From Promethearchaeota archaeon (GTDB taxonomy: Archaea; Asgardarchaeota; Lokiarchaeia; Sigyniarchaeales; SOKP01): a DNA stretch of 64,000 bases. A program made the translations under genes and the position numbers. Positions 12,371 to 15,982 of the stretch are shown piece by piece; the stretch's first letter is position 1, and every line of letters starts with the position of its first letter. The stretch is taken from the NCBI GenBank assembly GCA_048940445.1, contig JBHLON010000003.1, positions 50,626 through 114,625 on the forward strand, given 5' to 3'. The notes below the pieces were generated by a model. It was not told where the DNA came from and did not search any database. It saw nothing but the letters and a program-made list of their open reading frames with translations.

Positions 12371-14152
12371 ATGAGCAACTTAATAATTAAAAATGGATTT
12401 GTATATGACCCGCTCAATAAAATCGACGGCGAAAAGAAAGATATCTACATTAAAGATGGACTCATTGCCGAAAAAGTTAATACCGACGCAAAAGTAATCG
12501 ATGCTTCTGGAATGGTAGTGATGCCGGGTGGTGTTGATATGCATACCCACATCGCTGGACCCAAAGTCAACATTGGACGAGCTCTACGACCCGAAGATAA
12601 AGTCCCTGAATCAAACCTAAAGAAAACTAAGACTACACGATCTGGAACAGGTTTTAGCGTGCTCAGTACATGGTATACCGGTTATAAGTACGCCCAAATG
12701 GGCTATACTACAGCTGTTGAACCTGCAATGCCACTTCTCGAAGCTCGACACACCCATGAAGAATTCCTTGAAATTCCAATCATCGATAAAGCTGCCTTAC
12801 CCATATACGGAAATAATTGGTTCGTCCTGAAATATATACGCGACAATGATATTGATAAACTCACTGCTTACGTGAATTGGATACTCCAAGCAACCAAAGG
12901 ATATGCCATTAAAATCGTAAATCCCGGAGGGGTAGAAAACTGGGCATGGGGAAATGTGTGGCTTTTTATAGTCTGCACCCTAGAAAATTGTGAAAGTTTA
13001 GATGACCTAGTTTTCCATTGGAGCGTAACGCCTCGAAAGATTATTGAAAGTTTGGCAAAGGTTGCTGAGATTTTGAAACTGCCACATTCAATCCATGTTC
13101 ATTGTAATAATTTAGGGCATCCAGGAAACTTCAAGCATTCCCTTGAGACATTTAAAGTTTGCGAGAGCATAAAAGCTAATAATGGTCGAAAAACAAGTCT
13201 TCATGTAACCCATTGTCAATTTAATGCATACGGTGGTACAAATTGGAATGATTTCACCTCTGGAGCCGGTGAGATTGCCGAATACGTAAATGCACATAAG
13301 CATCTTACCATTGATTGCGGTCAAGTAGTATTTACTAAATATGCAACCACTACGATGACTGGAGACGGACCATGGGTCACAGATGAGTATCTTGTCTGTG
13401 CATGAAAGTTCGCGCTCCATCATTTAGGTGGGTATTCCAGCTGGGGTTCAAAGCCAGGCATTAAGTGGGTCAACGGGCAAGTAGAGGCAGAGTCAGGTTC
13501 GGGTATCGTGCCCTATTTTTTTGATCCTAAAAATAGTGTGAATGCGGTTCAATGGGCGATAGGTCTGGAGTTGATGCTTCTGATAAAGGATCCGTTTCAA
13601 ATTGGCTTTTCCACTGATCATCCAAACGGAGCGCCCTTTACCACTTATCCGATGGCGTTCAAATGGTTGATGGATCGAAAAAGTCGAGACGAGATGCTCA
13701 AGAATTCGGTCCATAAGAAGGCAAGTACAGCATCGACTTTATCTGATCTTGATAGAGAATTATCGCTCTACGAGCTTGCAATTGTCACACGAGCCGGTAC
13801 TTCGAAGATTCTTGGGATGAGGGATCGCGGTCATCTGGGTGTGGGAGCTCTTGGAGACGTTTCGGTATATAAATTAAACCCAAATAACTATACGGGACAT
13901 GATATTGAGAAGGCGTTTAGTTCGACAGCATACACAATTAAAGAAGGCACAATCGTGGTAAAGGATGGGGAAATCACGGCAGCTCCAATGGGAACTTTAC
14001 TGCGTGCTGAAGGCACACTAAAGGAGAATCTTATGGAGGAGATGCTTGATGACGTGCGCCATAGCTGGAGAGACCATTATAGCATAAACTTCAATAACTA
14101 TGCGGTTCAGGATGCTTACGCACCAAAAGAGAAAGTATTCAGAGGAAATTAA
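12371..14152 (+). CDS. fwdA: Formylmethanofuran dehydrogenase subunit A; join(12371..12953,12984..13376,13407..14152), 573 aa after removing two 30-nt introns
   Basis: PGGVDMHTHIAGPKVN, IKIVNPGG, LPHSIHVHCNNLG, HVTHCQF, TTMTGDGP, STDHPNGAPF. ORFs 12371 and 13508 are the same frame, separated by one TGA lying inside an insertion. Confidence 0.95.
12954..12983 (+). other. Putative 30-nt BHB-type mRNA intron 1 in fwdA
   Basis: GGGG-AA^A-TGTG...TGCA-CCCT-AG^A; excision turns WG-NVWLFIVCTLE-NC into WGKNC; outer exon helix is weak. Confidence 0.8.
13377..13406 (+). other. Putative 30-nt BHB mRNA intron 2 in fwdA (contains in-frame TGA)
   Basis: GGAC-CATG-GG^T-CACAGATGAG-tat-CTTGTCTGTG-CATG-AA^A-GTTC is a full BHB; excision gives GPWEFALHHL. 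Confidence 0.92.
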
Positions 14153-14161
14153 TTTTTTCTT

Positions 14162-15982
14162 TTATTTTTTTCTATTTAGGAATTCAACTTTATTATTTGT
14201 TTTCCAATATCCATTCGGTGGCATCTTAATATTCCATTCGCTTCTTAATTTGTGAAATGTACTTTTTGATGTAGAAAAGCGATCAACCAATTCATAATTA
14301 CGATATTGATATACTAGATCTTGAAGCTCTTGTTTATTGATACCCAAGTTTTTAAGTTTCATCTTTAAGTTTTCAAATGCTACACGTGATTCCGAAAAAT
14401 GTTTATCTTTTCTTTCTAATACTTTAATGTTTGATTTTTTACATAGATTTGTCATTTTATTAAAATATTTTGCCCCAACAAATAAAGAATATTGAGCTTG
14501 TTGCAAGTGTATCTTTCCACTTTTATCTTTATAGTATTTTGATTCAATAGTTCTTAAAATTGAATTATCTACATTCAATGCATGTTTCATTCTAACTAAG
14601 AATTGTTTGGAGGTAGAACAGATACGGGTAGTTCCACTAAATCCATCTCCATCATAATAACCTCGGATATAACCCATTAATAATTCTTTTTTTGAATTCA
14701 TATTAACTCCTTTTGGAATATCTTGTTTATAAAATTTTGGTAGTGATTTTCTTTTTGCCTTTGAAGAGCTGAAACCTTGTAATTCCAGATCTTTAGCAAT
14801 TTTATTATTTACAAAATTTAAATAAGCGTAATTATGGGATTTTCCCGTTTTATAATGATTTCTGGTTCTATATCTGATACGATTTTTATCTATTCCTATG
14901 TCTTGACATAATCTTTTTATTAGGACATCATCTTTTTTTGATAATTCTATGAAGATAACTTTCTTAGGAGTTTTTCTTTTGGTTTTAATTCCATTTTTGT
15001 AATAATGTTTCTTAGTCATAACACTTCCATCAGCCATCAAAAATCCGAGCCAATAAGCTTTTTGAAGAGTATTGATTTTGTTAAAATAGTTTATTTTCAA
15101 GTTGGGTTTATGCAAGTGCCATTGTTGGCAAGACTTATCTTTTAAGTCAGTATGGTGGCTAACATAACTGTTAATATGATTAACAAGGTTTTTAGCTTTC
15201 TCATTTGGAAAGTTAGATTGTATATTTTTTATGAATCTATTCAGAATTTCTTTAGAGAATTTATATATTGGATTATATAGTTTAGAATTTGGATTAAATC
15301 TTGGCATTATAGCTTGTTGGATGTAATCATATCCTTTCTTGCTGTTGATGTCATAAATATATTTGCTTAATTTCCAGTAAGATAATTCATCACGGTATTT
15401 TTCGTTTGGGACGAGTTTTCCGACTTCTTTTCGTAGTTTTTCGACGAGCCATAAGGTTGAGTACTTGGGGAGTATATTTCCTTGTTTATCTTTTATGATA
15501 TCGTTATTATGTTGTTTTGTAGAGGAGGGTTGTTTTATTTCATTATTTTTGGAGAATTTTTTATAGAGAAGGGCATCTTTGGGGTTAATAATTTTATTTT
15601 TTGATTTAATATTGTTGGTTAGCTGTGGTGGTTGGATTTTGTTGAAACTTGGATGTTTAAGTTCGGATTTGTTCTTGGAAGGTTTGTTGGGAGAGATTAA
15701 GATTCCTTTGGGTATTTTTAGTTTGGGGATACCTTTTGGATCAAGCCCCCAGCATTTGGGAGGTGGGGATATATCATTAATTTTGGGGTTGAGAATATCT
15801 TCTGGTGAGACTATTCTTGGATCAAGAATTTTGTTGTACTGAGGCGTGGTATAAGAACCAGATGGGTATTTAGGATGAGTTATTTTATTATGGGGGGTGT
15901 CTTCCTCCTGGATTTCAGGGTTGTGGAGTTCTTCTTTGATATCTTTTTTCGGGGATTGTGATTTACATTTACATTTTTCCAT
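14162..15982 (-). CDS. Free-standing LAGLIDADG homing-endonuclease-family protein with long low-complexity N-terminus
   Basis: Two motifs, AYWLGFLMADGSV and YIRGYYDGDGF; C-terminal IKMPPNGYW. Confidence 0.85.
   Translation of the reverse strand: MEKCKCKSQSPKKDIKEELHNPEIQEEDTPHNKITHPKYPSGSYTTPQYNKILDPRIVSPEDILNPKINDISPPPKCWGLDPKGIPKLKIPKGILISPNKPSKNKSELKHPSFNKIQPPQLTNNIKSKNKIINPKDALLYKKFSKNNEIKQPSSTKQHNNDIIKDKQGNILPKYSTLWLVEKLRKEVGKLVPNEKYRDELSYWKLSKYIYDINSKKGYDYIQQAIMPRFNPNSKLYNPIYKFSKEILNRFIKNIQSNFPNEKAKNLVNHINSYVSHHTDLKDKSCQQWHLHKPNLKINYFNKINTLQKAYWLGFLMADGSVMTKKHYYKNGIKTKRKTPKKVIFIELSKKDDVLIKRLCQDIGIDKNRIRYRTRNHYKTGKSHNYAYLNFVNNKIAKDLELQGFSSSKAKRKSLPKFYKQDIPKGVNMNSKKELLMGYIRGYYDGDGFSGTTRICSTSKQFLVRMKHALNVDNSILRTIESKYYKDKSGKIHLQQAQYSLFVGAKYFNKMTNLCKKSNIKVLERKDKHFSESRVAFENLKMKLKNLGINKQELQDLVYQYRNYELVDRFSTSKSTFHKLRSEWNIKMPPNGYWKTNNKVEFLNRKK

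Follow-up and report, generated by a model that had tools for sequence, protein, structure and literature searches.

The fwdA gene and its interruptions

The 64,000-nucleotide (nt) window analyzed here comes from the metagenome-assembled genome of an Asgard archaeon (G000; 3.64 Mb in 139 contigs, 93% complete, 30% G+C) whose close relatives carry the title Promethearchaeota. It contains fwdA, the gene for subunit A of formylmethanofuran dehydrogenase, and within fwdA a 30-nt segment at positions 12954-12983 that is probably a recently gained intron of the bulge-helix-bulge (BHB) type. A listing of open reading frames (ORFs) splits the gene in two. The first ORF (12371..13405, 344 amino acids) matches positions 2-321 of profile TIGR03121 with an E value of 6.3e-139, and the second (13508..14152, 214 amino acids) matches positions 347-555 with an E value of 1.4e-73. 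A canonical BHB intron with an in-frame stop codon, called intron 1 below, spans the end of the first ORF (Table 1). The first ORF is also some ten residues longer than the stretch of TIGR03121 that it spans. With both 30-nt segments taken out, the FwdA product is 573 amino acids long and collinear with orthologs of 572-573 amino acids.

When changes were polarized with four outgroups, 17 amino-acid substitutions were assigned to FwdA of G000 and 17 to that of its nearest relative, G017; synonymous codon changes numbered 82 and 73, respectively. By these counts fwdA of G000 shows no sign of decay or relaxed constraint, a measure in which a very recent insertion would leave no trace.

Table 1. 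Features of fwdA and of the RNA structure predicted around the candidate intron (positions in the window)
Feature	Position	Strand	Basis or remark
fwdA, formylmethanofuran dehydrogenase subunit A	12371-14152	+	Whole gene in one frame
Exon 1 (codons 1-194 and base 1 of the split Lys codon)	12371..12953	+	TIGR03121; alignment with solved structures
Candidate BHB intron (HBh' type), 30 nt, in frame, stop-free	12954..12983	+	Insertion relative to orthologs and solved structures
Exon 2	12984..13376	+	Profile match; ortholog alignment
Intron 1, canonical hBHBh', 30 nt, phase 1, in-frame TGA	13377..13406	+	Minimum-energy fold; orthologs
Exon 3, stop codon included	13407..14152	+	TIGR03121 match of ORF 13508..14152
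5' strand of exon-exon closing helix (13 bp)	12935..12947	+	Pairs with 13002-13015
5' exon strand GGGG of 4-bp central helix H	12948..12951	+	Pairs with 12978-12981, one G-U
5' bulge AAA	12952..12954	+	Unpaired in minimum-energy folds; predicted cut 12953/12954
Intron hairpin h' (4 bp, 1-nt bulge, 4 bp, 6-nt loop)	12955..12977	+	3 of 8 pairs G-U
3' intron strand CCCT of central helix H	12978..12981	+	86-nt and 120-nt folds
3' bulge AGA	12982..12984	+	3 nt in 120-nt fold; predicted cut 12983/12984
Small 3'-exon hairpin directly past the 3' bulge	12985..12999	+	120-nt fold
3' strand of exon-exon closing helix, one bulged A	13002..13015	+	120-nt fold

A lineage-specific insertion in a conserved motif

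Read in the frame that begins at 12371, the segment from 12954 to 12983 is in frame and contains no stop codon. Its excision converts WAWG-NVWLFIVCTLE-NC into WAWGKNC, the sequence found in the closest ortholog. The codons of the excision product are GGA AAA AAT TGT (GKNC), in which the split Lys codon is rebuilt. Excision of 12955-12984 yields the same product, and neighboring placements of a 30-nt excision give GEN or GNN, not GKN. In alignments with the solved FwdA chains 9sw6_I and 5t5i_A, a 10-residue gap opens opposite "nvwlfivctl", between W.WG and N. The nearest ortholog, G017, whose FwdA is 92% identical over the full spliced length and 94% identical over the first ORF (79% at the DNA level), reads TGGGGCAAGAATTGT (GGC AAG AAT) where G000 has TGGGGAA, the 30 nt, and AAAATTGT. 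The predicted spliced junction is ...CATGGGGAA/AAAATTGT..., the slash marking the point of joining.

Orthologs were sought in 41 genomes of the order, G000 included, and 27 loci cover the insertion site. Twenty-six of them read W.W followed by two residues (mostly GK, also GR and SR) and N; only the locus of G000 is interrupted. When the order loci were pooled with 52 metagenome loci and 32 loci from a species collection (114 in all, some records being reached by two routes), 96 had the uninterrupted motif, one, that of G000, was interrupted, and 17 did not match the search pattern, their site being uncovered or too divergent. Of the 96 matched loci, 63 read GKNC and 33 carry other two-residue variants, GKNV and GRNC among them, all without an insertion. 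No second copy of the 30-mer was found in the G000 genome, and none of the intron 1 30-mer. Comparison with orthologs confirms that the 30 nt at 12954-12983 were inserted into the conserved W.WG(K/R)N motif specifically in this lineage.

An insertion seen in one metagenome assembly might be a product of assembly or binning, or of a chimeric contig, and fwdA is cut short at codon 144 on a near-identical contig from another bin. Logan contigs from four sequencing runs were set against positions 12400-14100, the fourth run looking like a refiling of the third. Contigs from three studies bridge the insertion, at 12911-13231 (no differences), 12817-13259 (no differences) and 12900-13279 (one difference), with no gaps reported. 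Other contigs in the same runs diverge at 12943 or 12954 and go on as insertion-free relatives from other species. Since independent gapless contigs of three studies carry the insertion, an artefact of this kind is extremely improbable. The contig that breaks at codon 144 is G019:C97; it matches fwdA at 99% identity over codons 1-144 and stops at that point. The remainder of fwdA was not found in the G019 assembly (91% complete). Other G019 genes are much less similar to those of G000 (69% for the AIR-synthase-like gene considered below), and the contig may belong to the species of G000.

The ends of the insertion coincide with the predicted cut sites of a BHB motif

In a BHB motif a central helix, H, lies between two bulges and may be flanked by an outer exon helix, h, and an intron helix, h'. 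For the 120-nt context of the insertion (12909-13028), minimum-energy and centroid structures agree in predicting H, both 3-nt bulges, h', a closing helix formed by the two exons, and a hairpin in the 3' exon. The arms of h' are TGTG.GGCT (12955-12963) and AGTCTGCA (12970-12977). The 13-bp closing helix shuts the motif at a distance, through a three-way junction. Pair probabilities in H are 0.65-0.68 in an 86-nt context, and the weakest H pair has a probability of 0.80 in the 120-nt context. Classes hBHBh', hBH and HBh' are distinguished by which flanking helix, h or h', has at least two pairs; here h' supplies them and h amounts to 1 bp, giving class HBh'. G-U pairs account for four of the 12 in H and h'. 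Folding energies are -27.9 kcal/mol for the sense strand and -15.8 kcal/mol for the antisense strand, which lacks the motif; such strand specificity fits an RNA-level feature of the sense strand rather than a DNA palindrome. The predicted cuts were placed after the second base of each bulge, the usual position in BHB motifs.

The original prediction, made from this DNA alone, fares well in these respects. The GGGG/CCCT helix, the AAA and AGA bulges and the intron hairpin have the letters and pairings it described, and the canonical cuts would remove 12954-12983 to give WGKNC, as in G017; at all 26 other loci of the order that cover the site the motif is uninterrupted. As it had stated, the insertion is in frame and stop-free and leaves no trace in the ORF call, where 12371..13405 is continuous. 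A multiple alignment of FwdA, which it named as a check, places the insertion in G000 only. Its estimate of about 1 bp for the outer helix is correct for the stacked helix; the motif is less weak than it had supposed, being closed in the 120-nt fold by the distal 13-bp exon-exon helix.

The informative comparison is between the BHB cut sites and the ends of the insertion, the latter being defined from orthologs without reference to structure. Among 7,257,204 random 30-nt windows of the G000 genome, 4,722 (6.5e-4) combine all four pairs of H with an h' of at least 4 bp, and 9,387 (1.3e-3) combine H with either flanking helix. As two placements of the excision are equivalent, a chance coincidence is expected roughly 1 to 3 times in a thousand. 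Other indels provided a second control. About 778 kb of G017 were compared with G000 by tblastn (some 660 ORFs, about 20% of the genome pair). One set comprised 345 ORFs with a match (94,097 aligned columns, 33 indels of at least 4 amino acids) and another 314 ORFs at no less than 55% identity (91,240 columns, 25 indels). Each indel was scored, with shifts of as much as 6 nt in either direction permitted, for a complete H plus a helix of at least 4 bp. Two of the 58 indels reach this class: the fwdA insertion and a 21-nt insertion, with an in-frame TAG, in a phosphatase-like gene. None of the other 56 does.

These counts bear on the chief alternative, a plain translated insertion that adds ten residues to FwdA (NVWLFIVCTL, plus a K-to-E/N change) in the loop that follows the conserved Lys strand, tolerated or inactivating, and whose BHB-like fold is coincidental. 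The 56 other indels lie in alignments that are 55-86% identical, with flanks that are mostly poorly conserved. The fwdA insertion stands in an alignment 91% identical to G017, with 14 of 16 flanking residues identical. The region of the site is not variable, and the poorly conserved surroundings, without processing signal, that a translated indel leads one to expect are not what is seen.

Other mini-introns of the genome

The minimum-energy fold of intron 1 has an h of 5 bp, an H of 4 bp, 3-nt bulges and an h' of 10 bp, and its flanking exons pair over about 25 further bases. Two other species, represented by G017 and isolate YT2_053, share it in their fwdA; the remaining orthologs of the genus lack it. 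Differences in its hairpin among the carriers include U-G to C-G, U-G to U-A and G-U to G-C; one pair is lost.

A genome-wide scan sought BHB motifs that, once removed, leave long open frames joined, with two decoy geometries as controls. There was no excess of real motifs at low stringency (2,645, versus 2,578 and 2,495 for the decoys) or with h and h' of at least 5 bp (17, versus 14 and 11). The two best real matches are an intron in an AIR-synthase-like gene (PF02769), in first place, and intron 1 of fwdA, in second. The former, at G000:C61:8911-8940, is a 30-nt, phase 1 intron of class hBHBh' with an in-frame TAA, lies between FHV and TRAAL, and has an h of 11 bp and an h' of 9 bp. It is carried by five of 30 orthologous loci (five species). 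Five of its pairs have changed on both sides, 96.7% of the cells in the alignment are paired, and none of 500 shuffles reaches the observed covariation. Judged by such compensatory change, this genus has genuine BHB introns in its messenger RNAs (mRNAs), and their structure is under selection.

The phosphatase-like insertion (G000:C84:60575-60595, minus strand), so called from a reading of its motif and not from a database search, is 21 nt long, in phase 1, and absent from the G017 ortholog. It interrupts a CxGNxxRS-like motif as C-T-G/N-T-A-R-S, with an H of CTGG/CCAG and an h of 5 bp. Having a stop codon inside an active-site motif, it must be removed. G000 has, in all, four mini-intron candidates in three genes, every one a multiple of three in length and in phase 1, and three of them with an in-frame stop. 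No weight is placed on this regularity of length and phase, since two of the four were found by a method that sees only lengths divisible by three. A search for frame-shifting introns through split tblastn matches produced nothing convincing.

Intron 1 and the AIR-synthase-like intron resemble the candidate in being 30 nt long, in phase 1, and inside very conserved protein motifs. The three share one layout, in which one bulge base precedes a 23-nt hairpin, followed by a 4-nt helix strand and then two bulge bases. The two canonical introns differ in having the full hBHBh' structure (h of 5 and 11 bp), in-frame stops, a presence in 3 and 5 genomes, respectively, and, for the second, compensatory changes. 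The candidate, by contrast, has a stacked h of 1 bp, no stop, and one carrier.

The original prediction had further suggested that similar cryptic, stop-free introns hide in other apparently intact genes. This was not borne out: the approximately 660 ORFs compared with G017 gave one more BHB-flanked insertion, and that one has a stop codon. Nor did its proposed genome-wide scan for in-frame inserts of BHB geometry raise candidates above the decoys; stop-free 30-nt candidates, in particular, showed no excess in it. As such silent candidates are equally frequent with decoy geometries, structure alone cannot test the idea of hidden introns.

An 11-mer, TGTGTGGCTTT, at 12955-12965 recurs at G000:C61:8893-8903, in the exon arm of the outer helix of the AIR-synthase-like intron. 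It was considered as a clue to the donor of the insertion and is treated as a chance match, its gapped alignment score of 22 being surpassed by about 20 unrelated windows of the genome. Directly downstream of fwdA, at 14162-15982 on the minus strand, lies an ORF for a lysine-rich protein of 606 amino acids. It matches LAGLIDADG_3 weakly (E = 2.7e-4; 21.6 bits, under the cut-off of 22.5 bits).

Splicing enzymes

G000 has two genes for the splicing endonuclease EndA (PF01974), on contigs C3 and C62, with products of 201 and 205 amino acids (E = 1.4e-29 and 1.6e-19). From a reading of the two sequences, one has the motif that presumably contains the catalytic His, and the other lacks it. The ligase RtcB is also encoded (E = 2.7e-168). 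In the accessible part of a study of Asgard archaea (PMC5829648), these organisms have an (alpha-beta)2 EndA with an L1 loop, linked to relaxed motifs. The two-gene arrangement of G000 appears consistent with the heterotetrameric type reported there.

Aragorn finds only 13 transfer RNA (tRNA) genes in this 93%-complete genome, of which 6 contain introns. The low count suggests interruptions, of kinds that Aragorn misses, in most tRNA genes of G000.

Intron or translated insertion

Several observations weigh against an intron. The DNA of an in-frame, stop-free segment would look no different if the segment were simply translated, and the 15 sequencing runs listed for the stretch are all DNA. 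The lack of a stop in ten codons is unremarkable, with a chance of about 0.4 as estimated from base composition, and no second stop-free, BHB-flanked insertion was found in the ORFs compared with G017. The 30-mer, with up to 3 mismatches allowed, is present in one of 42 genomes of the genus, a single carrier. The fold energy is ordinary in both the 86-nt context (z = -0.24, 82 of 200 shuffles as good) and the 120-nt context (z = -0.47, 69 of 200). Within the 140 nt from 12900 to 13039 there are no fewer than 11 further BHB-like motifs whose central helix is complete and whose number of flanking-helix pairs equals or exceeds that of the candidate. The directly stacked outer helix consists of the single pair U12947-A12985; in the 86-nt fold, U12947 pairs with A12982 instead, H lengthens to 5 bp, and the 3' bulge grows to 6 nt, which makes the 3' site the weak one. 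The 17 amino-acid changes that distinguish FwdA of G000 include four at 8-28 residues past the insertion (residues 203, 208, 213 and 222 of the spliced protein), and none before it. This cluster could be read as compensation at the protein level; an equal cluster at residues 464-482 makes it unremarkable.

The exons around the insertion give a mixed picture. Synonymous changes specific to G000 at 12940 and 12946 improve or create pairs of the closing helix, and a TC-to-AG change at 12995-12996, also specific to G000 and a synonymous switch between Ser codon families, creates two pairs of the 3'-exon hairpin. A further G000-specific change, at 13008 (Pro to Leu), weakens a pair of the closing helix from G-C to G-U. 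Two results add to the points on the other side. When all eight G000-specific exon changes are reverted, only some 3 kcal/mol is lost and H keeps a probability of 0.8-0.9. Of 68 chimeras that join ortholog exons to this intron, 24 equal or outdo the native sequence in total or constrained energy; co-adaptation of the exons by energy was rejected, the native context not being exceptional. A presentation score was also computed from two probabilities, that of H forming and that of all six bulge bases being left unpaired, the lower being taken. In the native context it is 0.68 (0.80 for H alone), a value reached by one of the 68 chimeras, with the qualification, likewise unfavorable, that the score was chosen after the data had been seen and that the orthologs behind the chimeras are not independent. 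The score gives a hint that the native exon context may present the BHB motif well.

The ordinary energies, the abundance of BHB-like motifs nearby, the near absence of an adjacent outer helix and the four downstream changes are all compatible with an insertion that is translated. Against such an insertion stand the identity of the cut sites with its ends (6.5e-4 per placement, and 0 of 56 other indels), its position in a motif that is uninterrupted in all 96 other matched loci, and the lack of any relaxation of constraint. In addition, the only other BHB-flanked insertion carries a stop and must be removed, and a length of 30 nt in phase 1 equals that of the two canonical introns of G000. We consider a translated insertion unlikely on this evidence, if by no means negligible, and regard 12954-12983 as probably a recently gained BHB mini-intron of the HBh' type, because the BHB cut sites coincide with the ends of the ortholog-defined insertion and restore WAWGKNC.

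Splicing of such an intron would proceed as follows. In the pre-mRNA, the exon GGGG would pair with the intron CCCU to form the 4-bp central helix, and the rest of the intron would fold into a hairpin; the 3'-exon hairpin and the 13-bp exon-exon helix would close the motif. A two-subunit EndA would cut both 3-nt bulges, after 12953 and after 12983. RtcB would then join the exons, rebuilding the Lys codon (A/AA) and restoring the ancestral WAWGKNC motif. We infer cleavage and ligation at 12953/12954 and 12983/12984. As the intron is a multiple of three in length and has no stop codon, the unspliced message would still be translatable, into a FwdA with ten mostly hydrophobic residues inserted 13 residues past the conserved Lys of IKIVNPGG, a residue that we take to be a metal ligand.

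Splicing might also be partial or conditional, so that one gene gives an active FwdA from the spliced message and an altered or inactive one from the retained form. The relaxed motif, a probability of H near 0.8 and the existence of alternative pairings agree with this, as does the stop-free state, which lets the retained form be translated. The three related introns, however, all have stops, and the lack of one here may simply reflect chance in a young intron; we think partial splicing very unlikely. A broader proposal makes EndA/RtcB splicing a post-transcriptional switch. The stop-free fwdA intron would then yield two proteins from one gene, as a member of a small, turning-over set of EndA introns in this Asgard genus, 21-30 nt long, divisible by three and in phase 1, inside the most conserved catalytic motifs (twice in FwdA, and in the AIR-synthase-like and phosphatase-like proteins). 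This proposal seems to us quite unlikely.

Comparison with known systems

Annotation pipelines would give the product of this gene as a FwdA whose active-site region contains ten inserted residues. If the segment is spliced out, protein catalogs of intron-rich archaea contain hidden errors, Asgard archaea are still gaining introns in their mRNAs as well as in their tRNAs, and a frame-preserving intron offers a single gene a simple route to two forms of its protein. Otherwise the segment is an ordinary indel in a notable place. Should the switch exist, it would control the enzyme that opens the CO2-reducing C1 pathway, and the closest prokaryotic relatives of eukaryotes would have an archaeal equivalent of intron retention.

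Removal of a very short mRNA intron by a protein endonuclease has a parallel in the unconventional splicing of eukaryotes. In HAC1/XBP1, IRE1 cuts the intron at paired stem-loops, an RtcB-type ligase seals the exons, and the protein product changes. That system differs from the one proposed here in that its endonuclease and motif are unrelated and that its splicing is regulated and frame-shifting, whereas the fwdA candidate keeps the frame.

Among archaea, the nearest precedent is a cbf5 pre-mRNA intron of Crenarchaeota, reportedly described by Watanabe and colleagues in 2002. As presented in the available portion of Yokobori et al. 2009 (PMC2738675), its motif is often relaxed and is tied to a heterotetrameric endonuclease. 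The candidate resembles it in being a short BHB-type intron of a protein-coding gene, with a relaxed motif of the kind for which a hetero-oligomeric EndA of relaxed specificity is thought to be needed. The cbf5 intron is also, by the same portion of that account, patchily distributed among related species, pointing to gain and loss, a further likeness. Like the cbf5 intron, the candidate interrupts a coding frame and would have to be excised for the conserved protein sequence to form, 96 of 96 matched loci being uninterrupted. It differs in residing in another gene and in an Asgard lineage, in being divisible by three and stop-free, in its presence in a single genome, and in being known here from DNA alone.

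Two other systems share features with the candidate. The tRNA introns of Asgard archaea, as described in a preprint, include the motif class of the candidate, with a complete four-pair central helix and an intron helix, and this class is scored there among the canonical ones; the predicted enzymes are the same, and the introns show repeated, recent, lineage-specific gains. The mRNA of HVO_1309 of Haloferax volcanii is, like the fwdA message proposed here, an mRNA substrate of the archaeal splicing endonuclease; according to the accessible text of its report (PMC7714728), the BHB motif had been known from one mRNA before, and HVO_1309 was added as an mRNA cleaved by EndA. In the literature searched, largely outside subscription journals and in part seen as excerpts, no report of BHB introns in Asgard mRNAs or in fwdA was found; the protein-coding cases documented there are cbf5 of Crenarchaeota and the one EndA-cleaved Haloferax mRNA (PMC2738675, PMC7714728). 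What the fwdA candidate adds to these systems is most likely a known mechanism in a new lineage and a new gene, with the reading frame left unbroken.

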